DNA from: Lysobacterales bacterium
Lineage (GTDB): Bacteria; Pseudomonadota; Gammaproteobacteria; Xanthomonadales; SZUA-5
Assembly (NCBI GenBank): GCA_022844165.1
Contig: JALHMH010000004.1
Span: forward strand, 128,001 to 192,000
Direction of reading: 5' to 3'
DNA length: 64,000 nt
Under the pieces are notes generated by a model. That model ran no database searches. It had not been told where the DNA came from and worked only from the letters and a program-made list of their open reading frames with translations. Positions 17,692-56,469 of the stretch are shown in pieces. Numbering within the stretch: position 1 is the first letter of the stretch; each line of letters starts with the position of its first letter. The position numbers and the translations under genes were made by a program.

Positions 17692-17974
17692 CTGGAGTCG
17701 TTGACGGAGCGGGATCTTGTCATTTGAGTCAAATTTCGTCGGAGCGGCTTTGGCAGTTGAAGCCCCCTTGAGTACAAGGGGGCGATTGAGCGCGCAGCGC
17801 TCAATGGGGGTTCTGGCAAGTATGGTGTCTGGCGAAGCCAACAATGCTCGGCGGTCTGAGGCGAAGCCTCGTCTGGTCTTCGGCCACGATCCTGCGTCGC
17901 TTGTCCTCGCCATCGCGCTGCTATGCCACCGGTCGTTCAAGCCGAACCGCGGCGGGCCGCGAAAGCCGCCGGCT
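17692..17974. repeat. Dispersed multi-hairpin intergenic element, copy 1
   Basis: Core 17692-17871 aligns with 52196-52350 and 56151-56322; an identical 39-mer (CGAAGCCAACAATGCTCGGCGGTCTGAGGCGAAGCCTCG) is in all three. 17895-17974 also aligns with 56375-56469. Confidence 0.9.
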
Positions 17975-18066
17975 TCGGGCGAGATCTTGCGCGAAATCTC
18001 ACCAAATGTGATCAGGTTGGCACTCTTTCTGCATGGCCGATCCGAACCAGACGATTGGGACCATCC

Positions 18067-18345
18067 ATGGACAACGCTGTTGAACTGCAGTTCGCGCTTC
18101 GCTCGCCCGATGCGGGTCCGCTTGCCGCGGTGATTTGTGCCTTGGCAGACTGGCTGGAGGATCCGCACTGCAACAGTCAGCATCGTGCACTTGTCGCGCG
18201 CCTGTTGAACCAGGGCGAAGTGCCATCGGTGCTGGCCTGCAAGGCCCAGGACCGGTTGGTGGCCTACGCTGAACAAGTGGAAGCGCTGCACACCGCTGTG
18301 TTCGAAGCTCCGGTTGAACGGCCCATCCTACGCGCTGTCGTCTGA
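18067..18345 (+). CDS. Hypothetical protein (~92 aa)
   Basis: 3' part of ORF 17923-18345 from MDNAVEL; fills the gap and converges on the DUF2063 gene; no family recognised. Confidence 0.5.
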   Translation: MDNAVELQFALRSPDAGPLAAVICALADWLEDPHCNSQHRALVARLLNQGEVPSVLACKAQDRLVAYAEQVEALHTAVFEAPVERPILRAVV

Positions 18346-18350
18346 TCTCG

Positions 18351-19088
18351 TCAGGGTTCTACGCCGAGCACGATATCGCGCTCCAGCCAACCATCCAGCG
18401 TGGCAATGAAGGTCGCCGTCTCCAGTTGTAGTCCCGGAACTTTTTGATTCAGCGCGGCAATCGCCTCGGACCCCGTGACCCTGTGTTCGCTGATTGTCGC
18501 CCAGAGCAAGGCTGCCAGCGGCGTCAACACCTGAAACTGCACTTTGTCCTGTCGATTGCGGTAGACCATCAGCCAGGTGGGTTCGGCGGGAGGCTCGGTC
18601 GGCTGCCAATCGGGTCGAATGCGGTGCACGGGATACTGGTACCCAGCCAGACGCGCCAACGGCGATATCGAAATTCGCTGCGACATCCAATCGCCAGGCC
18701 GCGACGGAGCCATGCTCTGCGTATCGATGTCGAGCGCAAGTTCCAGCCATTCGTAGTGCGCCAGTTCCAACAAGAACGGAAACTGCGACTGCCAAAGTGC
18801 AGGCTGTGCCGCTAAGAACGCCATAAACTCTTGCGCAATCTGGTGAAAATACGGCGTGTGTGCCGGATGTTCACGGTAGTAAGCGCGAATCAGGAGCGCC
18901 CATTGTTCGCTGCTCATCAAACGCTTCATCACCGGGAAGTTGTTCGCGATCAGGCCTTCGACATTGTTGAACAACAAGTCGCGATAAATCTGCACGCGCC
19001 GATCTTCAAGCCCAGGCAAAGAGGGTGCGTTTGCGGGATCTCGCAAATGCTGCGCCAGCGCACGCTGGGTGATCTCAAAGGCCTGCAT
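18351..19088 (-). CDS. hvfC: DUF2063/HvfC-type RiPP maturation partner protein
   Basis: Q..LA.HLRDP, R..IYR.L.FNN, FPV, TPYF..I..EF, ELAHYEW.EL, YQYPVHRI; overlaps the DUF692 stop. Confidence 0.85.
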   Translation of the reverse strand: MQAFEITQRALAQHLRDPANAPSLPGLEDRRVQIYRDLLFNNVEGLIANNFPVMKRLMSSEQWALLIRAYYREHPAHTPYFHQIAQEFMAFLAAQPALWQSQFPFLLELAHYEWLELALDIDTQSMAPSRPGDWMSQRISISPLARLAGYQYPVHRIRPDWQPTEPPAEPTWLMVYRNRQDKVQFQVLTPLAALLWATISEHRVTGSEAIAALNQKVPGLQLETATFIATLDGWLERDIVLGVEP

Positions 19089-19896
19089 GGCGACGCACCC
19101 GGTCCAGTTCGGCAAGCAGCTCTGGGAGCGGCGGCAGGTTAAAGTCGCGCTCCAACAGCACCGGCTTTTCGCCGAGCCTCTCGCGGGTGTACGACAGCAG
19201 ATCGAAAACGGGATCGACCACCGCCGCGCCGTGCGTGTCGACAATCAAATCCGGTGCCTCGACATAATGCCCGGCGATGTGCAGATAACGCACGCGCTCG
19301 CCGGGTATGGCGTCGACGAATTGGCGCGCGTCGTAGCGATGATTGATGCTGTTGACGTAGATGTTATTGACATCAAGCAGGATGTCGCAATCGGCCTCGC
19401 GCACGACGGCCAACAAAAACTCGAGTTCGCTCATTTCAGCGGCGAGCGGTGTGTAAAACGACGCGTTCTCCACTGCGATGCGAGCACCTATGACGTCTTG
19501 CGTTTGGCGAATTCGCGCAGCGACATGGTGTACCGCGTCGGTCGTGAACGGGATCGGGAGCAGATCGTACAGATGCGCATCGTCGGCGCACCAGCTCAAG
19601 TGCTCGCTATACGTGGCAATCTGGTGATCGCGTAGAAAGTGTTTGACCTCTTGCAAGAAGCCGGTATCGAGTGCGCCCGGGCCGCCGAGCGACAACGACA
19701 ATCCGTGCGCCAGAATGGGCTTTTGTTCGGCGAAACGGGCAAAGGATTTGCCCAGCCGCCCACCGAGGCCGATCCAGTTTTCCGGGGCGACTTCGAAAAA
19801 ATCGACTCGGTCCAGTGCCGACGGATCGTCGTGCAGCGCCTTGAACAAGCCGCGGCGCAGGCCAATGCCCGCGCCGCGTGGAGTTTCAACGGTCAT
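19075..19896 (-). CDS. hvfB: DUF692 multinuclear non-heme iron oxidase (MNIO; HvfB/BufB type)
   Basis: GIGLRR, EVAPENW, HGLSLSLG, SEHLS, YDLLP.P, EN.S.Y, LLDVNNIYVN..NH, HIAGH, DTHG, LLERD. Confidence 0.93.
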   Translation of the reverse strand: MTVETPRGAGIGLRRGLFKALHDDPSALDRVDFFEVAPENWIGLGGRLGKSFARFAEQKPILAHGLSLSLGGPGALDTGFLQEVKHFLRDHQIATYSEHLSWCADDAHLYDLLPIPFTTDAVHHVAARIRQTQDVIGARIAVENASFYTPLAAEMSELEFLLAVVREADCDILLDVNNIYVNSINHRYDARQFVDAIPGERVRYLHIAGHYVEAPDLIVDTHGAAVVDPVFDLLSYTRERLGEKPVLLERDFNLPPLPELLAELDRVRRHAGL

Positions 19897-19908
19897 CGAT
19901 CAAAGTGA

Positions 19909-20271
19909 TCAAGCAGCGCCGCCGCACTTGCCTTCACCGCACTTGCCCTCTTTGCCCTTGTCCTTGTCGCCACCACACTTGCCTTCGCCGCACTTGCCTT
20001 CTTCACCCTTGTCGCCACCGCACTTGCCTTCTTCACCCTTGTCGCCGCCGCACTTGCCTTCGCCGCACTTGCCCTCTTCACCCTTGTCGCCGCCGCACTT
20101 GCCTTCGCCGCACTTGCCTTCCTTGCCTTTCTCATCGCCAACCAGCATGTAGCCCTGGTCGAGGTCCATGGCGGCCATCGAGCCGGGCGCGGCGGAAACG
20201 CTGCAAGCCAGGCTGCCCAACAGTGCTGCGCCGACAACGATCGAAACCGGCTTTACGATTGAATTGCTCAT
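19909..20271 (-). CDS. hvfA: RiPP precursor with signal peptide and nine EGKCG repeats (HvfA / EGKCG-bufferin type)
   Basis: Sec-type N-terminus, then EGKCG x9 with GDKGE-type spacers; directly upstream of DUF692. Confidence 0.9.
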   Translation of the reverse strand: MSNSIVKPVSIVVGAALLGSLACSVSAAPGSMAAMDLDQGYMLVGDEKGKEGKCGEGKCGGDKGEEGKCGEGKCGGDKGEEGKCGGDKGEEGKCGEGKCGGDKDKGKEGKCGEGKCGGAA

Positions 20272-20470
20272 TTGGGACTCCTAAGTTCAGTTGAATGCCG
20301 TCACGGCAAACGGCGCGTTATGTTGATACCAAAACCACGACACTGACAAGCGCTATTGCACATCTCGGCCGCTGTCGACCATACGAGACCGGGAGTGACG
20401 ACGGATGCTTTCAAGACTGCATCACATTTGCGGTGAGTGACTGTCTTCAAAAAAAGCGCGTCAATCGCTG

Positions 20471-21289
20471 TCAATACAACTGTCGATTCAATCCTAAAGA
20501 CTGCATCACCTTGCTGGCAATTTCCTCGATGGACATGTGCGTTGAGTGCATCACCGGGATACCCTCGCGTTTGAATAAGCGCTCGGCTTCTTCGACTTCC
20601 CAGCGGCATTGTTCCATCGATGCATAGCGCGAGCCGGCTCGTCGCTGTTCGCGAATTTGATGCAGGCGCCGCGGATCGATCGTCAGCCCATAAATCTTGG
20701 CACGTTGGTTACGCAGTTTAGCCGGCAGCTCGCCGGCTTCGAGATCTTCCGGTAGCAAGGGATAGTTCGCCGCACGCACACCATAGTGCAGCGCCATGTA
20801 CAGGCACGTTGGCGTTTTTCCCGAGCGCGACACGCCCATCAGCACAATTTCGGCATCCGAAAAATTCGCCTGCACGCCATCGTCGTGCGTCAGCGCGTAG
20901 TTCGTGGCATTCATACGCGCCTCGTATTCCGCCGTATCGGCGCCGCCATGCGCCTTACCCACCTTCGGCGTGCGCGGCATCCCGAGTTCCTGCTCCAGCG
21001 GCGGAATGAACGGCGCGAACACATCCAGCATCAATGCGCCGCTTTCGGCAATGCGTTGCGAGAGCAAACCATCGACCACCGTATTGATCACCACCGGTCG
21101 CACGCCGGCCTCTTCCCCGGCCCGCCGGATCTCCGCGGCAGCCTCGACCGCTTTCGCCGCGTTATCGACAAAAGCCAGCCGGCGCGTCACAAACGGCACA
21201 CCATCGAACTGCGTGAGCACACTATGGCCGATGGTTTCAGCCGTGATGCCGGTGCCGTCGGACACATAAAAAATCGGGCGGGGAAGCAT
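20471..21289 (-). CDS. ppsR: PEP synthase regulatory protein (kinase/pyrophosphorylase, DUF299)
   Basis: [45 protein letters not shown]. Confidence 0.93.
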
Positions 21290-21363
21290 GAGCGCAGGTT
21301 CGTAGGTCGGGAAGCACAAGACTATCGGGTTCGCGGCGTTGCGAAATAGATCGCGCACGAAAC

Positions 21364-21566
21364 GGGCCGGGCTTTCAGCCCTTTGGAATGTGATGTGTTT
21401 GCAAACCTGGGGCGTTGCCCCAGGCTGGTATGGTCACGGGCCTTTGGCCCGTTCAAACTGTATAGGTGCCGTTCACGTGTTTTCCGCGCCAAAGGCGCAT
21501 CGCCATACCAGCCTGGCAACGCCCCAGGTTTGAGCATTGAGGGGGTGCGGGGGAGACTTCCCCCGC
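21364..21566. repeat. REP/BIME-like palindrome cluster
   Basis: Inverted pair AAACCTGGGGCGTTGCCCCAGGCTGGTATGG (21403-21433) and CCATACCAGCCTGGCAACGCCCCAGGTTT (21503-21531), plus small hairpins GGGCTTTCAGCCC, CGGGCCTTTGGCCCG, GCGCCAAAGGCGC and GCGGGGGAGACTTCCCCCGC. Confidence 0.75.
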
Positions 21567-21584
21567 TGTTCACTTGCGGGATGG

Positions 21585-22274
21585 TCAAACTCCAAGGGCG
21601 TAATCAACCGCGGCGCGAGAATGGATGCGCGTGGTGTCGAAGACCGGTACCGCGACATCGCTTTGCGACAGCAGCAACGGGATTTCGGTGCAGCCCAGGA
21701 CAATGCCCTCGGCGCCGCGCGCGATCAGGCGATCGATGATGTCCAGGTAGCCGTGTTTGGTTTGTGGCGTGACGATGCCGCAGCCCAATTCGTTGCGCAG
21801 CGTGTGCTGAACGAATGTCCGATCATCGAAATCTGGCACCAGGGATTCGATGCCTGAGGCGCGCAACTTGTCGTGGAAAAACGCCAGTTCCATGGTGAAC
21901 TTCGTACCCAGAAAACCCACTGTTTTGAGCGCTTTCGACGAAATTTCCTTTGCCGTCGCGTCCGCGATGTGGATCACCGGCAACTGCGTCGCCGACTGCA
22001 TTTCATCGGCGAGCGCGTGCGCCGTGTTGGCGCATAACACCAGCGCCTCAGCGCCCGCGGCCTTCAGATGCATGCACCCGCGCAACAGTATCGAATGCGT
22101 GCGTTCCCAGTCGTCCCAACCGTGCGTTTGCAACTCGCCGAAGTTCAGGGAGTAGATCACGCATTCGGCGAACTGCAGCCCGCCCAAGCGCGCGTTGATG
22201 CCTTCGTTGATGTATCGGTAGTAGTCGATAGTCGATACCCAACTCAGCCCGCCTAGCAGTCCCAGTTTTTTCAT
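21585..22274 (-). CDS. Aspartate/glutamate racemase family protein (YgeA/RacX-like)
   Basis: GLLGGLSW.ST..YY, CANTAH and GCTEIP catalytic Cys motifs, LGTKFTM. Confidence 0.9.
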   Translation of the reverse strand: MKKLGLLGGLSWVSTIDYYRYINEGINARLGGLQFAECVIYSLNFGELQTHGWDDWERTHSILLRGCMHLKAAGAEALVLCANTAHALADEMQSATQLPVIHIADATAKEISSKALKTVGFLGTKFTMELAFFHDKLRASGIESLVPDFDDRTFVQHTLRNELGCGIVTPQTKHGYLDIIDRLIARGAEGIVLGCTEIPLLLSQSDVAVPVFDTTRIHSRAAVDYALGV

Positions 22275-22510
22275 TCGCGTTTCCGATCTGGATACAGGAT
22301 CGAAGGTTCTGCGATCGCTGACTTGCGCGTCAAGCGCTTAGAGGCGCCGTGACGCGCCAGTTTCGTTGCGCCCACGCCACGGTGCGCGCTGGAGTTCAGG
22401 CCAAAGTGCCCCCAAACGGCGCGCTGGTGCGTTTCTTGGCAAAGCTTAATGGGTGCAACTGAGTTGCCGGGTTAAACTGCCGGGCATCGTCCAGGACCGG
22501 GCAGGTATGC

Positions 22511-23659
22511 ATGCTGACGAGTTGGGCCTTTGTGATCGCCTTGGCGGCGACGCCGCCGGACCCTGCGGCCGAGGTTGCGCCGCCGCTGCCGACGATCGAT
22601 GAGGTGATGCACATTCCAGAGCCGCTGGCGCAGGCGTTTGCGGCGAAGGTGACTGACCCAAAAGGCAGTCAGCATGATCGGCTGATCCGCCTCGTCAAGT
22701 TCCTGTTCGATGCCGAAGGCATGCACTTGAAGTACGTCGAAGACGCGAATTACACCGTAGCCCAGGTGTATCAGTATCGGCAAGCCAATTGTCTGAGTTT
22801 CAGTTTGCTGACGCTGGCTTTGGCGCGCAGGGCCGGCCTTGCTGCGTATGGGCAAGGGATTTCGGAGGTGCTGTATTGGTCTCAGGATCAAACAGCGACG
22901 TACCATTCGACGCACGTCAACGTTGGGGTTCCGCTGGGCAAGCGACGCTTCACCTTGGATGTTGCCGCCGGGCAAATCTTGACCGACGCGCCACCCAAAC
23001 GCATCAGCGACGCACGATTGTTCGCGCAGTTTTACGCTAACAAGTCGGCCGAGTATCTGGCTGTTGGCGATCTGCAAAGCTCAGAGCGATTCCTGCTGGA
23101 GGCCTTGCGCCTTGATGACGCGTATGCGCCCATCTGGAACAATCGAGGTGTGCTGGAGCGCCGCCGCGGTCAGAGTGATGTTGCTCGAGCCTACTTCGAG
23201 CATGCCTTGAAACTGCAGTCGGACAATGCTGGCGCTTTGTCGAATCTGGCCAATTTGTACGGCCGCCTGGGTGCAGCGGCCGAAGCGCAAAAACTGAACG
23301 ACAGGCTCACCCGGATGCAGGCGCGAAATCCGTTCTATCAGATGCAGATTGGGACCAATTTCGAGGCCCACGGCGATCTGGAACAGGCGCTTGTTCACTA
23401 CAAGAAAGCGATTCGATTGCGACCAGAAGAGCCGCGGTTTTATGCGCGTCTGGCACAGTTGCATCTCAAGCAGGGTAACGCGTCCTCGGCGCTCAGCGCG
23501 ATCAAGAATGCTTTTCAGCACGCCAAGGGCACTGCGCGAAACGCGTACCGGGCAAAATTCGAAGCGCTGCGCGAGCGAAGTGGTACGCAAGAGCGTTCAT
23601 TGGACGCACAGGAGCGTCGCAGGCAGTTCGGTCAATTGTCGTTGTCTGGCCGTTGGTGA
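22511..23659 (+). CDS. Secreted TPR protein with N-terminal transglutaminase-like (SirB1-like) domain
   Basis: Signal-like N-terminus, ANCLSF..HVN..LD putative triad, several TPR repeats (WNNRGVL, ALSNLA). Confidence 0.65.
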   Translation: MLTSWAFVIALAATPPDPAAEVAPPLPTIDEVMHIPEPLAQAFAAKVTDPKGSQHDRLIRLVKFLFDAEGMHLKYVEDANYTVAQVYQYRQANCLSFSLLTLALARRAGLAAYGQGISEVLYWSQDQTATYHSTHVNVGVPLGKRRFTLDVAAGQILTDAPPKRISDARLFAQFYANKSAEYLAVGDLQSSERFLLEALRLDDAYAPIWNNRGVLERRRGQSDVARAYFEHALKLQSDNAGALSNLANLYGRLGAAAEAQKLNDRLTRMQARNPFYQMQIGTNFEAHGDLEQALVHYKKAIRLRPEEPRFYARLAQLHLKQGNASSALSAIKNAFQHAKGTARNAYRAKFEALRERSGTQERSLDAQERRRQFGQLSLSGRW

Positions 23660-23667
23660 CGATCGGT

Positions 23668-24078
23668 TTATTGCGCGCGCCGGGCTCGAACCAAAATGCC
23701 GTTTGGTGTTTTCAGCATGAAGCCGCCGAACGAGCCCGTCTGTATCGAGATCGCATCGCCAGGCTTTAGCCGGTCCTTGTTCGTCTGTGCTGGCACAATC
23801 CATATTTGCCCGTTTGTGAGAACGACTCGGCGGCGGTTGTCGCGCATGACATCGATTGACTGGATGGCACCTTCAATGCTCTCGGGCGCGGGCGCTGGTT
23901 CGACTCGGCGCAACTGTTCGCCCGGGCTTAGACCGAATTGACTCTCGGGATCGACCGGCGTTCGTTCCCCAGGGAACAGGGCATCAAAACACGCAAGGCG
24001 TTCGCCTGGGCTTTCGATTCTGGCGCAGTCCTGCGGAGACTGAGTCGCCAGCAGTGCGGCAAACAGGTGAGTCAACAT
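23668..24078 (-). CDS. Secreted hypothetical protein
   Basis: CARI....RLACFD N-terminal motif, FGL, L.NGQIW, G.FG.F.L motifs typical of a small proteobacterial family; start trimmed to MLTHLF. Confidence 0.65.
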   Translation of the reverse strand: MLTHLFAALLATQSPQDCARIESPGERLACFDALFPGERTPVDPESQFGLSPGEQLRRVEPAPAPESIEGAIQSIDVMRDNRRRVVLTNGQIWIVPAQTNKDRLKPGDAISIQTGSFGGFMLKTPNGILVRARRAQ

Positions 24079-24209
24079 GAGGGTATGCCAGCTGGGAATG
24101 GAAGCGATGCTGCCGAGCGCACATCCCAAGTGTCAACTGCGCGGATGGCGAGCGCCGCGGACCGCAGATATGGTCAAATGCCGCACTCTGGGTTTTCGGC
24201 GTGTTTCCG

Positions 24210-25343
24210 ATGGCGCGCATACGCGTACTGCACTTCGTGACAGGTGGATTCTCCGGCGGCGCCACTCAGGTGGCGATCGCTCTGGTCGATGCGGCTCGTG
24301 CTGCGGGCAATATGGAACCACTCCTGGTGCTGCGTCGAAAACGGCGCACGCCGCCAGGTCGAATCGAAGAGCTGCAAGCGCGCGGAGTGCCGCTCGATGT
24401 TGTGCCGGGTTGGTCGCGACTGGCGACAATTTTGGCACTTGCGAAAATCTGTCGGCGTTTCAAGCCGGATGTACTGGTGGCGCATGGGTTTACGGAACAT
24501 TTGTGGGGCCGCTATGCGGGACTGATGGCGGGCGTTCGCTGTTTGGTTCAGGTGGAGCAAAACACTCGTGAGCGCTACCGCCGTTGGCATCTATGGCAAA
24601 CACGGTGGCTGGCGCAGCGCAGCGCTGCGCTGGTTGGGTGCTCCGAGGGTGTTCGCCAGGTGCTCCTGGCACAAGGGCTGCCGCCGGATCGGGCAATTGC
24701 CATTTCAAACGGCATCGACTTGACGCCGTTCGCATTGGCCGGCCAGTTCGTCTGGGCGGATCGTGAGCCTGCGATCGTCATGGTGGCGCGTTTTTCGCGG
24801 CAGAAAGATCATGCAACATTGCTACGCGCAGTCGCGTTGCTGCGAGGGCACGGGCTGCATCCAAAAGTCCGCTTGGCTGGCGGCGGCAAGCCGCTGCATC
24901 GCAAGCCAGTCGAGGCGCTCGCCGCGAAGCTCGGATTGTCTCAACAAGTGGAGTTCTTGGGTGTACATCGCGATGTGCCGGGTCTGCTCATGCGGCACCG
25001 CGTTTCGGTGCTGAGTACCCATTGGGAGGGTATGCCGTTGGCGCTGATCGAAGCGATGGCTGCTGGGTGCGCGGTGGTGGGTAGTGCTGTGCCGGGTGTG
25101 CGTGAAGTCGTGAAAGATGGCGAAGATGGGCGTTTGGTTGCGCCGCGCGACCCTGCTCAGCTCGCCGAAGTGTTGCGAGCGCTGCTTGCCGACGATGGGC
25201 CGGGCGCACTTTTGGCGCAAGCAGCTCGGCTTCGCGCGATCGCAGAGTCAGGTCGTGAACGCATGAACGCCAGATACGAAGCCTTGTTTCTGGGCTTGGC
25301 AAACGATAGCGGTATTCCGGGCGAGCTCAGGCATTCAAGCTGA
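24210..25343 (+). CDS. Glycosyltransferase family 4 (GT-B)
   Basis: GG.SGGA, KPDVLVAHG, NGID, ARFSRQKDH, EGMPLALIEAMAAG. Confidence 0.88.
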   Translation: MARIRVLHFVTGGFSGGATQVAIALVDAARAAGNMEPLLVLRRKRRTPPGRIEELQARGVPLDVVPGWSRLATILALAKICRRFKPDVLVAHGFTEHLWGRYAGLMAGVRCLVQVEQNTRERYRRWHLWQTRWLAQRSAALVGCSEGVRQVLLAQGLPPDRAIAISNGIDLTPFALAGQFVWADREPAIVMVARFSRQKDHATLLRAVALLRGHGLHPKVRLAGGGKPLHRKPVEALAAKLGLSQQVEFLGVHRDVPGLLMRHRVSVLSTHWEGMPLALIEAMAAGCAVVGSAVPGVREVVKDGEDGRLVAPRDPAQLAEVLRALLADDGPGALLAQAARLRAIAESGRERMNARYEALFLGLANDSGIPGELRHSS

Positions 25344-25392
25344 TCTCGGCGTGCCAGCGGAGCGCCGTTGGCGCTCCGCTGAAACACGGTGG

Positions 25393-28457: not shown

Positions 28458-28459
28458 GG

Positions 28460-29014: not shown

Positions 29015-29031
29015 GTTTCGATGACCGCTCG

Positions 29032-47586: not shown

Positions 47587-47714
47587 GCGTATCGTGGTTG
47601 AGTGCTTCACGGGGAATGTGCCGACCCGGTGGAAACCACCGGATCGGCCACTTCGACGACACATGTGCGAGCAAGCTTCCCTTGTTCGAAGGAAGCTGCA
47701 TGGCTGGAGACGGG

Positions 47715-47921: not shown

Positions 47922-47970
47922 ATTCTTCTCCTGATTGGAGGCCTCAGCATGTGCCACCCATTGAGTTGCG

Positions 47971-47988
47971 TCTGTTCGGTTGCGCACC
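47971..47988 (-). promoter_or_regulatory. Palindromic site GT(G/T)CG-N4-CG(C/A)AC-(A/C)GA upstream of csbD
   Basis: Minus strand GGTGCGCAACCGAACAGA; related sites at 51281-51298 and 52358-52375. Confidence 0.5.
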
Positions 47989-48025
47989 AGAGCCAGAGTT
48001 CGCGGATTGGATCGCGGGTCGCAGA

Positions 48026-48789: not shown

Positions 48790-48792
48790 GGT

Positions 48793-49140
48793 TCAGCGCC
48801 TCGCGAGCATCGCGCCGACCAGCAGGCCGGCAATACTGGCTGCCCCAACCGCGGCCCAGGAGTGGGCGTGGACATAAGTATCGGTTGCAACAGCAGCGTC
48901 GCGCGCACGGATGCCGAGCTTCTCGCGAGCCACGTCGACATGTTCCTTGAGCGACCGCAGCGATTCCCGGACACTTGCTTGAATATCGCTGAGCTTCTCG
49001 CTGCCGACATCGGTTGCGGTCTTCAGAACGATCTCAGCATCGGTCAGTACTTGCTTGAGTTCGGACATCAAGTCGTCGCCGACGGGCACATCTGTTGCTC
49101 GGACGGCTTCTGATGGGTTGAGTGAATTGGGCATACGCAT
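48793..49140 (-). CDS. DUF883 family protein (ElaB/YqjD/YgaM)
   Basis: L..L..DAE.L, TD.YV....W.AVG.A...GLLVG..LARR tail-anchor motif. Confidence 0.85.
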   Translation of the reverse strand: MRMPNSLNPSEAVRATDVPVGDDLMSELKQVLTDAEIVLKTATDVGSEKLSDIQASVRESLRSLKEHVDVAREKLGIRARDAAVATDTYVHAHSWAAVGAASIAGLLVGAMLARR

Positions 49141-49266
49141 GGTGATTCTCCAAGATAGAAATTTCGTGATGGCAGCCCGGCACACCGCTGCGCGCGGAAG
49201 TGCCTGGCGATGGCATGGGTCCGAATCGTCTGCACCCGGACACCGACTGTTGTTCGAGGGGCAAGG

Positions 49267-49920
49267 CTAGGTGCGATTGGCGAATCTCAGTCCTGCGCCG
49301 ATCAACAGGGCGCCGATGCCGAGCACAGCAAACCAGGGCAACACGCCGGCGGTGTTCGGCAAACGCAGAGCGGACGGCGAAAGCACCGGCGCAGCTTGCG
49401 CCAATTGCGGTGGTTCTGCGGGTGCTTCATAGCGGACAATGCGCCCATACGACTCTGGCGGCGTTCCGACTTCGGTCGTCAATGCGGCTGCGCCCTCAGG
49501 GACGTATAAATTGATGCGTTGGCCCCCGCGGAGTGCTGTGAACGGGTACTTGCGGCCATCCAGCGTTACCTGTTGGCCAGGATTGTTGAGCACCGTGTAA
49601 CGGCCCATCGACCGACCGCCGGGGCTGACGAAGTCGGCGACTACCGAACCGTCGCGATCCAGTCGTATGAAGTCTGCTTCGAAGCGTGCCCATTTGTTGC
49701 CGTTGTTATTGATGACTTCGAAACAGGCGTCGGGGATGCGCGGGTACTGTTCGATCAGTTCCAGATTCCAGGCCATGTCGACCTGCCCGCAGCTCAGAGT
49801 GCGCGTATGAGTCGGCTCGAGGTCTTTGGTGTCCATGCCCTGTGCGAAAGCGAAGTTGGTAAACGCGAGACTGAGAATCAATGGCGTAATGCGCGAATTG
49901 TGAGTCTTCAACGATTTCAT
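49267..49920 (-). CDS. Secreted protein with C-terminal LPxTA sortase sorting signal
   Basis: AGGAG RBS; signal peptide ending AFA; C-terminus LPNTA + hydrophobic GVLPWFAVLGIGALLIGAGL + RFANRT. Confidence 0.8.
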   Translation of the reverse strand: MKSLKTHNSRITPLILSLAFTNFAFAQGMDTKDLEPTHTRTLSCGQVDMAWNLELIEQYPRIPDACFEVINNNGNKWARFEADFIRLDRDGSVVADFVSPGGRSMGRYTVLNNPGQQVTLDGRKYPFTALRGGQRINLYVPEGAAALTTEVGTPPESYGRIVRYEAPAEPPQLAQAAPVLSPSALRLPNTAGVLPWFAVLGIGALLIGAGLRFANRT

Positions 49921-50128
49921 TGTGATGCTCCTTGTTGAGCCTGAACGGTGGGGATTTAACCCCTTGTGGAACCACTTGTGCGCGAGAACGGTGCGGGCTC
50001 GGCCCTGCGCTTTACGACACACTCGCCGCCCTGGTTGCCAATGGGCAGCAACGGTGACTTCCGCGGCGATCTCGATCGAGCCGGGAAGACGGTTAACGAT
50101 CGGGCAGCTCCTCTGCAACACACCCCGG

Positions 50129-50836
50129 TTAGTTGGGATCTTGATTCGCGACCAGCGCGCGAACGATGTAGCGCTTTGGCGCTTGACCGGCGAACCAGAA
50201 CGGATAACACGTGATCAACGTCAATGCGGCGTGGTCTGTTGCTTGCAGCGGCGAAACGTCATCGGGGTCGACGATCGACACCGATGCGATTCGGTAGTGC
50301 ACATGGCTGGCCATGCTTTCAAACTCGATCCAATCGCCGATCTTGACCCGGCTCAGTGCTCGGAAGTAGCCGTCGCGATGCGCGGCGATAGCGATGTTCC
50401 CAATTTCCTCATGCATACCGTCGGTCGTTACCAGACTCGCGCCACGGTTGAGGTTCCGTTCGCTCAGAGTGGCATACACCGGTACTTCTAATTCGATACG
50501 TGGAATCCGCAGCAAAGCAATTGGCAGGGCGGAGTCGCTCGCGGAGCTGTCGGCGTACGAGCGGATTCGGCTGGCTGACCAGTCAGTTTGGTTGACTTCA
50601 GCTGGTGCCGCGTCGGACGCCAGGATGGGTATGAGCGCGCTCAATGGTGGGTTGCGCGGTGCAACAGCGTTCTGATCCGCAGCGTTGGCATACGCCTTGT
50701 TCTTCGCAAATGCTGTCATTGCCCGTTGGCGCTCCACCTCGCCGGAAAGGCGACCTCCGGCGTAAGTCAGTAGCAGGGCGACACCGATGATCCAGGAGGC
50801 CTTTTCAGCCTGCCGCACGAGTGAGTGGGCGCGCAT
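50129..50836 (-). CDS. Class D-like sortase
   Basis: N-terminal TM; LRIPRIEL.VPV, L.RGA, GNIAIAAHRDGYF (His), LTLITCYPF (Cys), KRYIV (Arg). Confidence 0.9.
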   Translation of the reverse strand: MRAHSLVRQAEKASWIIGVALLLTYAGGRLSGEVERQRAMTAFAKNKAYANAADQNAVAPRNPPLSALIPILASDAAPAEVNQTDWSASRIRSYADSSASDSALPIALLRIPRIELEVPVYATLSERNLNRGASLVTTDGMHEEIGNIAIAAHRDGYFRALSRVKIGDWIEFESMASHVHYRIASVSIVDPDDVSPLQATDHAALTLITCYPFWFAGQAPKRYIVRALVANQDPN

Positions 50837-50839
50837 GTG

Positions 50840-51019
50840 TCAGTGCCCGATCGCCGGTGTCAGGTCGTTTTCGCTTTGCGGAGAGCTTTGGGCGTCAGCC
50901 TCCTCCTCAATCCTCTCGCCAACCTTCTGCGTGTCTTTGCCGACCCCCCGGATCGTATTGCATCCGGCGAAGAGGTTGGCGATCACTAACAACGCAATGA
51001 CACGAATGATCGTCGACAT
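50840..51019 (-). CDS. Entericidin A/B family lipoprotein (59 aa, absent from the ORF track)
   Basis: Manual translation MSTIIRVIALLVIANLFAGCNTIRGVGKDTQKVGERIEE...; GGAG RBS; CNT..G.GKD...G motif. Confidence 0.85.
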   Translation of the reverse strand: MSTIIRVIALLVIANLFAGCNTIRGVGKDTQKVGERIEEEADAQSSPQSENDLTPAIGH

Positions 51020-51280
51020 GTCGAATCTCCCAATGCCTGGTCGGGCACGAGTGCCCTGCGAATCTGGGCGTCGGCAGGGGTGTCTACGGTCCTTGGCCGA
51101 CGCTGGTTTGGTGTTTCACAAGAGTGTCCGTTGTTTTCTCGTGTCTCGCGGCTTTCCGGCACTGCGCGTTGCAGCCATCGCATCGCTATGGCTTCTGGTT
51201 GTACCTGATCTGCGACGAGATCCATCGGAAACATGGGTCCATCTCTGTAAGCGCTACGTTAGTCGCGCTCTAAGGGGGCG

Positions 51281-51298
51281 TCTGTTCGCTGACGAACC
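51281..51298 (-). promoter_or_regulatory. Same palindromic site, between the entericidin and csbD2 genes
   Basis: Minus strand GGTTCGTCAGCGAACAGA. Confidence 0.5.
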
Positions 51299-51579
51299 AT
51301 GGCGTGGCCGGCGATCGACTTCGTCATGAGTGGTTCGAGTGGTTGGTCGCGCGCCGATCGAATCTGCCCGACTTCTGTGCCGGTGCGGCCGTCAAAGCCA
51401 ACGGTCACAGCGCTTTTCGGAGCGCTACGAACGCGTGGTATTGGTGTTCGGGTTTGCGACCGCTCATAGTGGCGTGGCGCACAGACCACCTAAACGAAGG
51501 CAGGGCAGCCTGTAGTGGCTATGCAGTCGAATCCAATCACTCGGCAGCACGGTACCCCTGGCAACGAAGGAGAAACTTC

Positions 51580-51777
51580 ATGATGAATTGGGATACGGCA
51601 CACAATGATTCAGCGCTGAAAGGCAAGCTCAAGACTCAATGGAGCAAGCTTTCCGACGTGCAGCTCGACTCGATCAAAGGCAAACGCCCGGCACTTCTGA
51701 GCACCATCCAAAGCGCGTACGGCGTGAGCAGCGACGAAGCCGAGAAGCAGGTCGCAAGCTTCGAGAAGCTCCACTGA
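51580..51777 (+). CDS. CsbD family stress protein (second copy)
   Basis: AAGGAG RBS; MNWD..KGKLK.QW.KL.D..L..I.G.R..L...IQ.AYG....EAEKQV..FE. Confidence 0.85.
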   Translation: MMNWDTAHNDSALKGKLKTQWSKLSDVQLDSIKGKRPALLSTIQSAYGVSSDEAEKQVASFEKLH

Positions 51778-52195
51778 TCGGGTCATGACCTTGCTCATCG
51801 CAAACGCCGTGTGCAAGTCAGCCAGCCAAATCAGAGTTGTTTCATGACCATCGGAGTTTAGGCTCTCGTGGGGCAAGACACGCGCCGGCACATGCCGGCG
51901 CGCTTGGTTTGTGCCGTAGCGATCATGCATCAGCTTCGATGACTGCGATTGTTGCGTTGGCCGATCGATAACCGCCTGTGTGGCGACGATGTCTTCGATC
52001 GGATTGCCCTTCGCATTGCCAGTCTGTAGCGAAGCCCACAAGTGTGTTTCCTTGAGTCGACCCGTGGTGGCCCGACCCGCTGTGTTTCGAGCGATTCTGG
52101 CAGCGCCCGCTCAACTGGCAATAGCGCCGAAGACGGGGCCCATGAGAGGCCCGTGGGCTCTCGCCGCCAATCTTCAGTTTGTGCCCATCACCACA

Positions 52196-52350
52196 CAAGA
52201 GTCCTTGATGAAGCTGGATCTTGTCATTTGAGTCAAGGCTTTGGCTTTTGCAGCCCCTTAAGTTAAGGGGCGCGCGAAGCGCGGGTTGTGGGCAATACGG
52301 TGTCTGGCGAAGCCAACAATGCTCGGCGGTCTGAGGCGAAGCCTCGCTAG
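52196..52350. repeat. Dispersed multi-hairpin element, copy 2
   Basis: Starts CAAGAGTCCTTGA, shares the 39-mer at 52308-52346, ends GCCTCGCTAG. Confidence 0.9.
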
Positions 52351-52357
52351 GAGCAGA

Positions 52358-52375
52358 TGTGCGCTACCGCACCGA
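52358..52375 (+). promoter_or_regulatory. Same palindromic site upstream of the MCE/Mla-type ABC operon
   Basis: TGTGCGCTACCGCACCGA. Confidence 0.5.
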
Positions 52376-52562
52376 TGACGACGGCGTTGCGGTGCAACTT
52401 TGAGACTCCTTATCGCTCCAGGGGATCACGTGAGCCTTCGTTGTACCTGCGTAGTCGGCTACTGGGTGGCAGTTCGTCTTGAGAGTTTGCAGGACTGGCC
52501 AGCCAGGTGCGTTCGTGGCGCAAATTGCCTCGACCTCAACCGCCCGGGCGTTTGCTGGGATC

Positions 52563-53696
52563 ATGCTCCAGCAAGCCAGCATTGACGCCGCCATCTCAAT
52601 GTCCGCCGATGCGCAATTGCGGCTCACCGGCGACTGGTCTGTGCGTGGTCTCAAGTCGATCGAGGCGCAGCTGGCTGCGCTGAATCCACCGTGCAGCAAG
52701 CCGCTGACCTTGAATTGCGCGGAGGTCCTGGCAATGGATACGGCCGGGGCATGGCTGCTGCAAAGCTTGCTGCTGCGGCTGCAGGCCAACAGCGTGGGCA
52801 CAAAGATCGACGGCTTAAAGCCTGCGTTTGCAAAGCGACTGGAAGTCGTCGCTGCGCAGTTGGCGGCTGCGGACAGCCAAAGAGCCCCAACAACCGCGGC
52901 AATGCGACCACTCGAGCGCCTCGGGCGCAGCGCCTTTGCGGTATGGGAGGAAACCTATGCGCTGCTCAGCTTTGTCGGCGAGACGGCAAAAACGCTGCTG
53001 CAATCGGCCCTGCAGCCCGCGCGCATTCGTTGGCGCCCGATTCTGTTCAACATTCGTGAGGCCGGCTTCAACGCGCTGCCGATCGTCGGTCTTCTATCGT
53101 TCTTGCTGGGCGTTGTCGTCGCCTACCAGGGCGCTGATCAGCTACGCCAATACGGCGCGAATATCTTCGTCGCCGATTTGGTGGGTGTGTCGATGCTGCG
53201 CGAGTTTGCGCCGTTGATCACGGCGATCATCATCGCCGGACGCTCCGGATCTGCCTACGCAGCTCAAATCGGCACCATGGCGGTCACCGAAGAGATCGAT
53301 GCGATGCGCACGCTCGGCATCGCGCCCATCGAAATGCTGGTGCTGCCCAAGCTCATCGCGATGCTCATCGCGCTGCCGTTGCTGACGGTGTTCGCCGATG
53401 TGCTGGGCATACTGGGCGGCATGCTGATGGCGCGCGAACAGCTCGACGTCGGGTACGTCGAGTTTCTCGATCGGTTGATTAAGGCAATCGTGATGACGAC
53501 GTACACCGTAGGCATCGGCAAAGCACCGGTCTTCGCGCTGATCATCGTGTTGGTGGGCTGTTTTCAGGGCTTTCGCACACGCGGCGGTGCCGACAGTGTC
53601 GGTCGTCAGACCACCCGTAGCGTCGTGCAGTCGATCTTTCTGGTCATCGTTGCCGATGCGCTGTTCTCGGTCGTGTTCAGCGCATTGGATATCTAG
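52563..53696 (+). CDS. MlaE-family ABC permease with N-terminal STAS domain
   Basis: L.GDW, MDTAGAWLL STAS; LREFAPL.TAIIIAGRSGSA.AAQIGTM...EEIDA, VG..TT.SVV. Confidence 0.9.
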   Translation: MLQQASIDAAISMSADAQLRLTGDWSVRGLKSIEAQLAALNPPCSKPLTLNCAEVLAMDTAGAWLLQSLLLRLQANSVGTKIDGLKPAFAKRLEVVAAQLAAADSQRAPTTAAMRPLERLGRSAFAVWEETYALLSFVGETAKTLLQSALQPARIRWRPILFNIREAGFNALPIVGLLSFLLGVVVAYQGADQLRQYGANIFVADLVGVSMLREFAPLITAIIIAGRSGSAYAAQIGTMAVTEEIDAMRTLGIAPIEMLVLPKLIAMLIALPLLTVFADVLGILGGMLMAREQLDVGYVEFLDRLIKAIVMTTYTVGIGKAPVFALIIVLVGCFQGFRTRGGADSVGRQTTRSVVQSIFLVIVADALFSVVFSALDI

Positions 53697-53698
53697 GC

Positions 53699-54517
53699 AT
53701 GGACGCCGGCGACGAGACGGTCATTGAGCTCAGCAAAGTCTCGACGCGATTTGGCGATCATGTGGTGCACCGCGAGATCGACTTGAGCGTCCGCCGTGCG
53801 GAGATATTCGCGCTGATCGGCGGCAGTGGCTCAGGCAAATCCACGCTGCTGCGCGAAATGATTCTGCTGCACCGACCGACCTCGGGCAAGATCAAAGTCC
53901 TTGGGAACGATCTGGATGCCCTGAGCGAAGCCGACGCCAGCGCGCTACGTCTACGCTGGGGCGTGATGTTCCAGCATGGCGGCCTTTTCGGCGCGCTGAA
54001 TGTGCGTGAGAACGTTGGCCTGCCGTTGCGCGAGCACACCAAGCTGTCTGACGCGCTGATCGATTCGCTGGCCGAATGGAAGCTGACGATGGCCGGTCTT
54101 GGGCTGGAGGTGGGCACGCAATTTCCCAACGAGCTCAGCGGCGGAATGATGAAACGCGCATCGCTGGCGCGAGCACTGGTGCTGGATCCGGAACTGCTCT
54201 TTCTCGATGAGCCGACAGCCGGGTTAGATCCCGTGAGCGCCACAGGCGTGGACGTCTTGGTGCTGAAGCTGCGCGAGCTGTTCGGCTTGACCATTGTGAT
54301 GATCACCCACGATCTGGATTTGCTGTGGCAAGTTGCCGATCGCGTTGCCGTGCTCGCCGATGGCCGCGTCGAAGCGGTCGGATCGATGGCAGACCTGGCC
54401 GCGATCGACCGCCCTGAGGTTCGTCAGTTTTTCGAGGGTGCGCGTGGCCGCGCGGCGCAGCAATCCGCAGCGCCCTCCAATCGCAATCAAGCCGGGACAT
54501 CATGGAAACCAAAGTGA
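53699..54517 (+). CDS. MlaF-like ABC ATP-binding protein
   Basis: GGSGSGKS, FQ.G.LF, LSGGM.KR, LFLDEPTAGLDP, ITHD. Confidence 0.92.
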   Translation: MDAGDETVIELSKVSTRFGDHVVHREIDLSVRRAEIFALIGGSGSGKSTLLREMILLHRPTSGKIKVLGNDLDALSEADASALRLRWGVMFQHGGLFGALNVRENVGLPLREHTKLSDALIDSLAEWKLTMAGLGLEVGTQFPNELSGGMMKRASLARALVLDPELLFLDEPTAGLDPVSATGVDVLVLKLRELFGLTIVMITHDLDLLWQVADRVAVLADGRVEAVGSMADLAAIDRPEVRQFFEGARGRAAQQSAAPSNRNQAGTSWKPK

Positions 54518-55449
54518 ACTATGCCCTCGTTGGGGTTTTCGTCATCGTCCTCGGTGCGGCTTTGGTTGCGGGCATCTTGTGGATCGCTTCCGGGGGCGAC
54601 TTCCAAAAGAGATACGACCTGTATCTATCGATCAGCGAGGAGTCCGTCGGCGGGCTGAATCTCAACGCGCCGGTGAAATACCTTGGGGTGGACGTCGGCA
54701 AGGTTCGCTCGATCGAGCTCGATCCGGTCGATCAGCAGCGCGTGCGGCTGGTGTTTGCGATCGAGCGCGGCACGCCAATCAAGGTGGATACCGTGGCGGT
54801 GCTCACCACGCAAGGTTTGACCGGCATCGCCTATGTCGAGCTCAACGGCGGCAGCAAAGATGCCGAGCCGCTGCGCGCGCGAGTGGTGGGCGACATGCCG
54901 ATCATCCTGACCAAGCCCTCATTGAGCGCGCGCCTGGAGAACGTGCTCACACAAGTTCTGGCAAAGCTGGATGGAACCTCGAGCAATGTCGATGCCGTGC
55001 TGAGCGACGAAAATCGGCGCAACTTCAGTGCGGCATTGGCCGATATTGCCACCGTGGCGCACACGATCTCCGCTCGCCAGAGTGATATCGATCGCGGGAT
55101 CGCGAGCGCTGCGACCACTTTGGAGAGCTCGGCAAAACTGATGGCTCGGTTGCAACCCGCATTGGACCAGATCAACCGCAGTGCTGCATCGATTGAGCGA
55201 TTCGGCACCGAGGCCACGGCCGCCTCCAGTCAAGCCGGGGAATCGATCGAATCGCTGGGCGCCGACCTGTCGCGGTTTGGCGCAGAAACGCTGCCAGAGA
55301 TGACCCGCCTGCTCGATGAACTCAATATCCTGGCCGCGTCCATGCGGCGCGTTGCCGAGCAAACCGAGCGCAGCCCGAACAGTCTGATCTTCGGCCGCAG
55401 CAAGGTGCCGGCCGGGCCCGGCGAATCGCCAATGGAACGAAAGCAATGA
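54502..55449 (+). CDS. MCE/MlaD family protein
   Basis: METKVNY.LVG.FV, SV.GL....PVKY.GV.VG.V, QGLTG..YVEL.GG, long helical tail. Confidence 0.9.
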   Translation: METKVNYALVGVFVIVLGAALVAGILWIASGGDFQKRYDLYLSISEESVGGLNLNAPVKYLGVDVGKVRSIELDPVDQQRVRLVFAIERGTPIKVDTVAVLTTQGLTGIAYVELNGGSKDAEPLRARVVGDMPIILTKPSLSARLENVLTQVLAKLDGTSSNVDAVLSDENRRNFSAALADIATVAHTISARQSDIDRGIASAATTLESSAKLMARLQPALDQINRSAASIERFGTEATAASSQAGESIESLGADLSRFGAETLPEMTRLLDELNILAASMRRVAEQTERSPNSLIFGRSKVPAGPGESPMERKQ

Positions 55450-56105
55450 ACGCTCTGTCGACTTCGAACGTGTTGCGGATCGGCGGCCTCGCAACTGCCC
55501 TTTTTTGGCTCGTCGGCTGCAGTGGACTGATCCCCAGGCCCACTCCGCAGGCGGCCTTCTACACCATCGATGTGGCGCCAGCGTCCGGCGCGCTGGCGCC
55601 GTCGATCAACGCCAAAGACATGCCCACGGTGCTCATCAGCGCGCCGCGCGCTGCTGCCGGGTATGACAGCCGGCAAATGATCTATGTGCGCCAGGACTAT
55701 CGCCTGCAATACTTCGCAGACAGCCAGTGGGTAGACACGCCAGCGCGCATGTTTGCACCCCTGATGGTGACCCACCTTGCCGCTGCCGGCGCATTTCAGG
55801 CGGTCTACACCGGCGCCAGCGCGGCGGCAGATCTGCGCCTGGATACCGAGATCGTTGTGCTCAAGCAGGACTTCCTCACGACGCCGAGCCGGGTTCGTTT
55901 CGTGTTGCGCGCTCACTTGATCGACGGGGTAAGCCGACGCGTGATCGCCGCACGCGATATTGAGGCCACCGTGGCGAGCGCCAGCGAAGACCCCTATGGT
56001 GGCGTGGTTGCTGCCAACGGCGCTGTTGGCAAGGTGCTGAGTCAGTTGAGCGAGTTCTGTGCTGAGGGCATTGAGGCGTGGCAAAAGCGCTCATCGACGC
56101 CCTGA
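55446..56105 (+). CDS. ABC-type transport auxiliary lipoprotein (PqiC/DUF330-like)
   Basis: Lipobox LVGC; P.A..GYDS..M.Y, YFA...W.D.PA.M, Q.F...PS.V motifs; last gene of the MCE operon. Confidence 0.85.
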   Translation: MNALSTSNVLRIGGLATALFWLVGCSGLIPRPTPQAAFYTIDVAPASGALAPSINAKDMPTVLISAPRAAAGYDSRQMIYVRQDYRLQYFADSQWVDTPARMFAPLMVTHLAAAGAFQAVYTGASAAADLRLDTEIVVLKQDFLTTPSRVRFVLRAHLIDGVSRRVIAARDIEATVASASEDPYGGVVAANGAVGKVLSQLSEFCAEGIEAWQKRSSTP

Positions 56106-56150
56106 TGGTGTGAATGCCTGTGACCCTGAGGCCGTTGCGCGGGCGGTCCA

Positions 56151-56469
56151 CTAGAGTCCTTGACGGAGACTGATCTCGACAAATGAGTCAAATTTTCTAC
56201 GAAGCGGCTTTGGCTTTTGAAGCCCCCTTGAGTCAAGGGGGCGCGCGGAGCGCGCGGTTGTGGCAAGTACGCTGCCGAACGAAGCCAACAATGCTCGGCG
56301 GTCTGAGGCGAAGCCTCGTTAGTGGTGTGTCACAAATACCTCTAACTAAAGTTCCGCACCTTTTGACCCGAATACGTCGTTGTTCGTCGTCGCCATGGCG
56401 CTGCTATGACGCCCGGCCCGGCGACGCAGCCGCCGGTCGTTCAAGCCAACTCGCGGCGTGCCGCCGGCT
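56151..56469. repeat. Dispersed multi-hairpin element, copy 3 (extended form)
   Basis: Starts CTAGAGTCCTTGACGG; 39-mer at 56280-56318; 56375-56469 matches copy 1 at 17895-17974. Confidence 0.88.

Follow-up and report, generated by a model that had tools for sequence, protein, structure and literature searches.

IS200/IS605 elements have neither terminal inverted repeats (TIRs) nor a target duplication, insert 3′ of a specific tetranucleotide, carry subterminal hairpins, and have short gene-less derivatives; elements of this type also show a replication-strand bias. IS91/ISCR elements and Helitrons, which use HUH enzymes of the Y2 type, are also free of inverted repeats and duplications and have a target tetranucleotide at one end and a hairpin just before a CTRR-like terminus. 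Here, we analysed a 64,000-nucleotide stretch of the genome of a Lysobacterales bacterium (GenBank assembly GCA_022844165.1, contig JALHMH010000004.1, positions 128,001 to 192,000; C4:128001-192000 in our contig numbering), hereafter the window, in which a short non-coding multi-hairpin element occurs three times. The observations as a whole are best explained if these copies belong to about 250 miniature non-coding derivatives of an unannotated, CTAG-targeting insertion sequence (IS) family with a Rep_trans-like enzyme, a reading to which we assign a probability of roughly 0.7.

The paper on Replitrons counts IS200/IS605, IS91/ISCR and Helitrons as the three known groups mobilised by Rep proteins and adds Replitrons to them. 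The present element resembles IS200/IS605 in the absence of TIRs and duplications, the insertion 3′ of a fixed tetranucleotide, a related tetranucleotide at its end, the subterminal hairpins, and the gene-less derivatives. However, the open reading frame (ORF) of its coding partner has no match to PF01797 and is not a Y1 HUH gene, the hairpins at its two ends are unlike each other, its target and end tetramers are one word (CTAG/YTAG), leading to head-to-tail arrays, and its copies lack the replication-strand bias. With IS91/ISCR and Helitrons it shares the absence of inverted repeats and duplications, the target tetranucleotide at one end, and the hairpin near a CTRR-like terminus, whereas the predicted fold of its partner protein matches the unrelated Rep_trans class of TBP-like fold rather than an HUH Y2 enzyme; the element is also much smaller than a Helitron.

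For both partner-protein models that we built, the best structural match was to Rep_trans/MOB_T proteins (PF02486; 4cij, 4cwe). The paper on Rep-Arvir (PMC13107129) describes an N-terminal TBP-like sheet domain followed by a winged helix, an arrangement that the models also suggest for the partner protein, with the winged helix C-terminal here and central in Rep-Arvir. The partner protein also has an invariant tyrosine in a K-x-Y-x-K context and invariant acidic residues, which may correspond to the tyrosine and acidic residues of Rep_trans enzymes. It differs from these in matching neither PF02486 nor DUF7845 by sequence, and its gene is part of chromosomal units of 1.8 kb that are present in many copies, have defined ends and come with miniatures, rather than of plasmids, phages or conjugative elements. 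Classical miniature inverted-repeat transposable elements (MITEs), for instance families B and C of the same genome described below, are likewise small, non-coding, intergenic, high-copy and CTAG-bounded, with ends in common with a coding parent, but the present element has no TIR and its flanking repeat is not a simple duplication. Repetitive extragenic palindromes (REPs) and bacterial interspersed mosaic elements (BIMEs) with a REP-associated tyrosine transposase (RAYT) also place hairpins beside a conserved xTAG tetranucleotide and are intergenic and sometimes clustered. In contrast to these, the present unit is 170-250 bp long, multi-hairpin, and has two different ends, and the RAYT of the host has other REPs.

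Copies and insertion sites in the host genome

A first-pass annotation of the window, made from the sequence alone, had proposed a three-copy element on one strand. Pairwise comparison reproduced the common strand and the start positions, giving copies on the + strand at 17692-17875 (copy 1, 184 bp), 52196-52350 (copy 2, 155 bp), and 56151-56322 (copy 3, 172 bp). The ends at 17974 and 56469 given for copies 1 and 3 have to be corrected: from 17876 to 17974 and from 56323 to 56469 the similarity is due to family B, a different repeat that has TIRs. The number three also does not hold beyond the window. The host genome comprises 4.68 Mb in 59 contigs (60.5% G+C, 99.97% complete), and a blastn search with copy 3, which the annotation had itself suggested, returned abundant further copies, namely 290 high-scoring segment pairs. 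Left and right parts could be joined into 113 full copies, leaving 20 left and 50 right parts unpaired. A profile search with nhmmer merged into 252 intervals covering 40,794 bases, or 0.87% of the genome. By length, the full copies comprise a short form of 145-185 bp (56 copies), a long form of 235-256 bp (56 copies), and a single copy of 442 bp; the long form (56/113) is distinguished by a further hairpin module, ~75 nt in size, that separates stems 1 and 2. Every one of the 113 is intergenic; where they overlapped crude ORF calls (24 cases), the overlap was always at an over-extended ORF start. The orientation of the copies is unrelated to the neighbouring genes (50 vs 58 next to 3′ ends, 49 vs 57 next to 5′ ends). 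The elements occupy promoter and terminator regions and are mistakable for regulatory RNAs or REP elements. The same-genus genome G001 carries diverged copies.

Both edges of the element are sharp, with a tetramer followed by AGTCCTTGAC on the left, and GAGGC-GAA-GCCTC, G and a tetramer on the right. An inverted-repeat search of copy 3 found stem 1 only, in line with the absence of TIRs noted in the annotation. The CTAG-like tetramers reported there at the ends recurred in the 104 copies with anchors in register: the left tetramer was CTAG in 64/104, the right one CTAG in 51/104 and TTAG in 15/104, and the remaining variants were mostly CCAG or CTGG. CTAG is the rarest palindromic tetramer of the host genome (1,390 sites, observed/expected 0.42), and 140 of these sites lie at edges of this element family. 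The elements create and concentrate CTAG sites. A neighbouring copy follows immediately on the left of 17 copies and on the right of 11, with one tetramer in common; such head-to-tail arrays sharing one CTAG arise when an insertion enters behind the CTAG that terminates an existing copy. As an observation on base composition, CCAG and CTGG are enriched in the host genome (1.18), and decayed element flanks are mostly of these two types; the CTAG depletion with CCAG/CTGG enrichment recalls, we presume, very-short-patch repair.

To look for empty sites, the flanks of each copy were joined around one tetramer and searched against the host genome. Uninterrupted paralogous repeats were found for three copies, each with a single tetramer at the site and otherwise contiguous flanks. 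For copy 1, the paralogues G000:C5:167479-167613 and C13:108423-108290 (G000 being the host genome) both have a single CTGG; for the copy at C24:10030, three of four paralogues read YTAC (CTAC twice, TTAC once); and for that at C1:135251, the paralogue reads CGAC where the filled site is CTAC...TTAG. The contiguous flanks indicate true insertions at a CTAG-like site, with one tetramer derived from the target. The comparison of filled and empty sites envisaged in the annotation therefore succeeded among paralogues, while orthologous sites were not readable: in G001, copy 1 is absent and the spacer has changed too much for an exact empty site to be defined (even coding DNA being only about 73% identical), and Logan contigs of four metagenome runs over 50500-58500 gave no copy-skipping joint, as the contigs break at repeats. 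No RNA run was listed among the public runs that contain this DNA.

The two tetramers behave differently. The first base (T/C) of the right tetramer was associated with an internal marker at a distance of 25 nt (10/18 vs 10/79, Fisher p = 2.6e-4, a value overstated because the copies are kin), whereas the left tetramer was not (2/19 vs 8/79, p = 1.0). The hairpin-end tetramer travels with the element, generating an apparent direct repeat of CTAG without true target duplication. Furthermore, a T at position +4 after the hairpin-end tetramer was found in 67% of 87 unique right flanks of the host genome and in 46/81 (57%) in other genomes, which suggests CTAG-N3-T as the preferred target word.

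Full-length elements in other bacteria and their protein

A 38-nt pattern scanned against a species-representative genome collection gave no match there, and a shorter 26-nt end motif with one free base was used instead. This motif occurred in at least 88 stretches from many phyla, including Thermoanaerobaculia and other Acidobacteriota, Thiocapsa, Thiorhodococcus, Ca. Thiosymbion, Ca. Multivorans, and delta-, alpha- and gammaproteobacterial metagenome-assembled genomes (MAGs), among others. It was followed by CTAG in 48/81 and by TTAG in 17/81, and the body upstream of it differs among lineages. With a strict pattern for the non-hairpin end, 22 elements had both ends, 10 of 1,804-1,871 bp and 12 of 124-321 bp. 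Full-length multi-copy elements are present in Acidobacteriota, Chromatiaceae, Burkholderiaceae and further groups. On the Thermoanaerobaculia chromosome OY762911.1, all five fetched copies of 1,868 bp, at five different sites, are bounded by CTAG...TTAG, which gives the strongest indication that the element itself brings the hairpin-side tetramer. Plasmids of the cultured Burkholderia sp. YI23, Caballeronia sp. SBC2 and Paraburkholderia aromaticivorans have in common a 1.81-kb segment of 93-95% identity that extends exactly from tetramer to tetramer in differing contexts.

The last ~30 nt and the first ~45 nt of the window copies match both ends of these 1.8-1.87-kb multi-copy elements. Read on the strand opposite to the ORF, a full-length element consists of the target CTAG, an end of ~45 nt with a weak hairpin, the body, an end of ~30 nt with GAGGC-GAA-GCCTC-G, and YTAG. 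The miniature copies retain only the two ends and, in the host genome, also ~40 further common bases adjoining the hairpin end; their interior is filled, in a lineage-specific manner, with GC-rich hairpins in exchangeable modules. Two of the ~1.8-kb elements (L119 and L070) were read in detail and have one long ORF each, on the strand opposite to the miniature orientation used here. The full-length element likewise has no TIR: of the 25 longest inverted pairs in the L119 copy, not one links its termini to each other.

The single ORF encodes a protein of ~533 aa that has no Pfam family (E ≤ 0.1, and E ≤ 1 across 27 members), no NCBIfam family, and no sequence match in the PDB; the only signals were weak winged-helix matches near the C-terminus. 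Under 27 plasmid matches the annotation reads "hypothetical" or "uncharacterized protein", one weak match being an ArsR regulator and several being unannotated. The family is large, with 11,019 clusters of 50% identity at E ≤ 1e-3 and 1,236 at E ≤ 1e-30, and all 8,000 scored candidates matched the protein at E ≤ 1e-3. Across 27 members down to 29% identity, the residues D23, R24, E114, Y147, N175, H177, Q251, E253, K325, Y327, R335 and D345 are invariant.

AlphaFold2 models of two members with 31% identity, P0002 and P0210, reached mean predicted local distance difference test (pLDDT) scores of 87.9 and 86.3 and predicted template modelling (pTM) scores of 0.80 and 0.78. The best PDB matches of both models were four chains of 4cij, a Rep_trans rolling-circle initiator, with E-values of 1.7e-3 to 6.3e-3 for the first model and 1.7e-4 to 4.3e-4 (probability 0.99-1.00) for the second, for which the 4cij chains were the only PDB matches at E ≤ 1e-3. 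A search of the viral structure library BFVD with a model returned TBP-fold proteins, including A0A2N9QVX7. According to PMC13107129, Rep_trans enzymes have a TBP-like fold with a tyrosine and acidic residues, and Rep-Arvir, with its N-terminal TBP-like domain and winged helix, yields a similar Foldseek list that includes A0A2N9QVX7. From the models, we infer that the ORF encodes a Rep_trans-like tyrosine nuclease that has the TBP fold and, at its C-terminus, a winged helix. The invariant tyrosine of a K-Q-Y-x-K motif is the candidate nicking tyrosine, proposed on grounds of conservation.

Several observations on the full-length elements stand beside these results. Between the hairpin end and the ORF start lies a structured leader (L119 1858-1873 / 1948-1963; L153 about 1410-1500; L154 about 2410-2500), containing a 16-nt stem that persists in the Burkholderiaceae copies through matching changes; the leader may mask the ribosome-binding site or give rise to an RNA. 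One flank, CTATAGCTAG.., follows the element at three loci (L076, L081, L125) of Ca. Multivorans and Thermoanaerobaculia genomes, indicating that CTAG-rich palindromic sites recur as landing places. In Frankia, PMC6735867 describes insertions and deletions of repeated CTAG tetramers beside transposases, which may or may not be related to the present element.

Mode of movement and competing explanations

On the sequence evidence, the window elements are non-autonomous derivatives of an unannotated CTAG-targeting IS family. The annotation had taken them for a non-autonomous mobile element, and the high copy number, the three paralogous empty sites, and the ends matching coding elements of other phyla all bear this out. 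Its proposal that hairpins and a tetranucleotide, rather than inverted repeats, define the ends stands in outline, since TIRs are absent, the hairpin-side tetramer is carried, and the other tetramer comes from the target. An HUH enzyme as the driver, which it suggested, is not supported: the partner protein has no HUH domain, and its predicted fold matches the non-homologous Rep_trans TBP-like nucleases.

By analogy with known systems, the element probably moves through single-strand nicking and as single-stranded DNA. The TBP-fold nuclease would nick one strand after CTAG at both ends via its tyrosine, and the nicked strand would then be moved or copied, as IS200/IS605 or IS91/Helitron elements do with unrelated HUH enzymes. 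New copies land directly after a CTAG, preferentially CTAG-N3-T, and the miniature copies would be moved in trans by the protein of a full-length element. We hold it to be an even bet that the window copies are miniatures, mobilised in trans, of an additional class of rolling-circle-type transposons acting through single strands, which would be the first without an HUH enzyme and be driven by a TBP-fold, Rep_trans-like tyrosine nuclease. Enzymes of this kind are known from the replication of plasmids and phages and from conjugation. In the literature searched, which excluded ISfinder, subscription journals and supplements, we found no description of this element family, of a Rep_trans-type transposase, or of transposition by this enzyme class.

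If this is correct, the family would be among the larger unannotated mobile-element families in bacteria, judged by its 11,019 clusters, and routine annotation would miss a very large IS family together with its miniature derivatives, labelling the coding elements "hypothetical protein". A non-HUH enzyme class would join the short list of transposons that use single-strand nicking. Little sequence would be required in cis, comprising one end of ~45 nt, the opposite end of ~30 nt with a single GNA-loop hairpin, and CTAG; the comparison of full-length and miniature elements across phyla narrows the DNA needs of the enzyme to these two short ends and CTAG.

A number of results weigh against this interpretation. 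The ~533-aa protein was not found in the host genome, despite its completeness of 99.97%, nor in the 119 genomes of the order, which include the host and the same-genus G001; the same query gave 6, 3 and 5 matches in three known carrier genomes (3/3). As no autonomous copy was found in these genomes, the mobilising enzyme is deduced from other phyla. PF02486 matched none of the 27 members at E ≤ 1, and the TM-scores to 4cij are low (0.17-0.19 by query, 0.27-0.34 by target). Identical non-CTAG pairs of left and right tetramers occur 7 times against 2.5 expected from shuffles (p = 0.008), and one element in another genome reads CCGG...CCGG; a real short duplication in some insertion events is possible, although uneven copy age could also explain the excess of identical pairs. 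The copies show no replication-strand bias (37 vs 35 of 72 copies), a test restricted to regions with |GC skew| > 0.01 of a draft genome and thus a weak proxy. No empty sites from close strains were obtained. As to the missing gene, multi-copy elements are often lost from binned assemblies, so the organism may still carry it. No two copies in the host are identical, the median nearest-neighbour identity being 0.956 for the short and 0.922 for the long form; together with the absence of the enzyme gene, this makes it most likely that the miniature copies are relics of past activity.

Other enzymes of the host were considered as mobilisers. Its sole Y1 HUH gene, RAYT-like and encoding 149 aa, lies at G000:C48:21375-21824 (L063 1483-1932), flanked by two pairs of inverted REP-like palindromes that have only 4-6 genomic copies and are unlike the element. 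IS110 is represented by one truncated DEDD remnant with an in-frame TGA at a contig end (G000:C16:283-573). The annotation had suggested looking for copies next to an HUH, RAYT or IS110 gene, but the Y1 gene has its own, different REPs and the IS110 remnant adjoins no copy; both candidates were rejected on these grounds. The partner ORF, for its part, matches neither PF01548 nor PF02371 of IS110, and since it has no Pfam family at E ≤ 0.1 it has no HUH Y2 match either, the host genome itself not having been searched for PF04986. The host has one DDE_Tnp_1 gene, and no DDE_3 (IS630-type) gene was found in it.

Among the rival explanations, the one that survives best, though unlikely, is a partner similar to a site-specific recombinase that exchanges a CTAG core on double-stranded DNA, possibly assisted by RNA from the structured leader. 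CTAG at both junctions, some identical non-canonical tetramer pairs, the conserved structured leader of full-length copies, and the lack of strand bias are all compatible with such an exchange. However, the T variant of the hairpin-side tetramer was kept over 5/5 CTAG insertions, which core exchange would presumably tend to homogenise, and the predicted fold matches a nicking initiator, not a serine, tyrosine or DEDD recombinase.

Considerably less probable is a classical MITE moved by a CTAG-targeting DDE transposase, IS5- or IS630-like, that duplicates CTAG or TA. The absence of a TIR speaks against it, as do the right tetramer inherited with the element, seen in both the marker linkage and the 5/5 CTAG...TTAG copies, and ends equal to those of full-length elements, the single ORF of which matches no DDE family. 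A duplicating DDE enzyme could nevertheless produce CTAG flanks on both sides and the surplus of identical non-CTAG pairs (7 vs 2.5), two TIR-bearing MITE families of the same genome are likewise CTAG-bounded, and the host has its DDE_Tnp_1 gene, albeit no gene of the IS630-type DDE_3 kind that we could find.

We give slightly less credence still to the idea that a Y1 HUH enzyme, either RAYT or TnpA, moves the copies as palindrome-associated elements that are REP/BIME-like or of the IS200/IS605 type. Subterminal hairpins beside a tetranucleotide at both ends, with no TIR and no clear duplication, would suit such an element, and one Y1_Tnp gene is present in the genome. This gene, however, is flanked by its own, different palindromes (4-6 genomic copies), the ends of the element correspond to those of another coding element, the full-length elements are free of Y1 genes, and a replication-strand bias is absent. 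The least probable explanation is that the copies are structured non-coding RNAs, or hairpin modules with a regulatory role, multiplied by duplication and acting as RNA, an alternative also raised in the annotation, because the many stable hairpins, the pairing kept through changes, and some right-module variant pairs that would be G-U wobbles (read by eye) are set against the lack of any Rfam match even at E ≤ 1, the lack of orientation bias towards neighbouring genes (50 vs 58; 49 vs 57), RNA fold z-scores of only -1.3 to -2.2, sharp edges with insertion signatures, and GNA loops on the strand antisense to the ORF of full-length copies.

Hairpins, parts of the window copies and co-resident repeats

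The hairpins described in the annotation were largely reproduced. Stem 1 forms a perfect hairpin in each window copy, and the 113 full copies show it in several versions that retain complementarity (..CTTGA/TCAAG.., ..CTTAA/TTAAG.., arms of CCCC vs CCCCC, and one CTCTCTTG/CAAGAGAG). The slot of stem 2 is filled by differing palindromes closing GAA, GGA or GCA, and the right-hand stretch ending in GAGGC-GAA-GCCTC is common to all three window copies. GNA triloops are one-sided, accounting for 226/454 triloop hairpins on the given strand and 20/454 on the other, and in full-length copies the strand that bears the GNA loops is antisense to the ORF. An enclosing pairing around stems 1-2, also proposed in the annotation, was present when copy 3 was folded as RNA, though its register differs slightly from the one given there; both of its sides are nearly invariant and provide no covariation evidence.

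RNAalifold was run on MAFFT alignments, which are not structure-aware, of 53 short, 56 long and 37 mixed copies. The consensus folds were unstable with almost no counted covariation, because stem 1 was misaligned; for the 37 mixed copies, 1/26 predicted pairs changed on both sides. The hairpins of all full copies were therefore classified directly. Fold energies were modestly better than those of shuffles (RNA z-scores -1.3, -2.2 and -1.7; DNA z-score -2.6). Since the stems are palindromic and the copies are kin, the hairpin data do not separate selection at the DNA level from that at the RNA level. Rfam gave no match in the window at the gathering score, and at E ≤ 1 the only match in the three loci was to a tRNA.

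All parts of the copies are given on the + strand. Copy 1, with the long version of stem 2, is inserted within a B-like repeat, whose right part lies outside the element at 17876-17974; its joined flanks match the uninterrupted paralogues, and the CTGG on its left (17692-17695) is target-derived, as both paralogues have CTGG at this position. Its 26-nt family-wide end motif (17846-17871), ending in the GAGGC-GAA-GCCTC hairpin and G, is followed by a decayed tetramer, TCTG (17872-17875). In copy 2 the left tetramer is CAAG and the right one CTAG; 14 nt of the left module are missing, and the end motif lies at 52321-52346. The left neighbour of this copy resembles the end of a B-type repeat (..accaca). 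Copy 3 extends from CTAG to TTAG. Its left-end module, AGTCCTTGAC .. GAGTCAAATTTT (56155-56196), corresponds to the end downstream of the ORF in the full-length element, as assigned by end alignment with full-length copies of Thermoanaerobaculia, Ca. Multivorans, a gamma MAG, Burkholderia and Caballeronia, and contains TTGAC and GTCAA stretches able to pair. Stem 1 (56222-56242) is a perfect 10-bp hairpin with a 1-nt loop, and stem 2, the variable hairpin slot, reads GCGCGC-GGA-GCGCGC (56241-56255). The end motif (56293-56318), with its terminal hairpin at 56305-56317, corresponds to the full-length end upstream of the ORF and is followed by the element-borne TTAG (56319-56322), whose T/C state is linked to the internal marker. 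The B-like repeat abutting copy 3 (56323-56469) lies outside the element and matches many loci of G001 and G016 without the element.

The ORF-distal end hairpin contains a GATC in its loop, at 56171-56176 in copy 3 and at the same place in most copies of this genome. It occurs in proteobacterial lineages (also at L154, about 4136-4140) and not in Acidobacteriota copies, and could be a control point for Dam methylation. A reading of the left and right modules by eye as sigma-70- or sigma-54-like promoters was discarded, as key positions vary between subfamilies. Several contigs of the host genome end inside copies (e.g. C43 and C54), so the miniature copies probably help to break its assembly.

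Family B is a classical MITE of ~166 bp with TIRs of ~25 bp, bounded by CTAG (G000:C23:40251-40416; locus L041, about 3752-3917), with many copies in the host and in related genera (G001, G016) in which the present element, family A, is rare or absent. Family C is a CTAG-bounded TIR element of ~136 bp with a minimal 45-bp form made of the two inverted ends alone, found for example at C25 just right of 4910, at C18:65698-65833, and at C6:51095-51230; one copy lies inside a copy of family A, the 442-bp case. Families A, B and C often stand side by side, sharing one CTAG.

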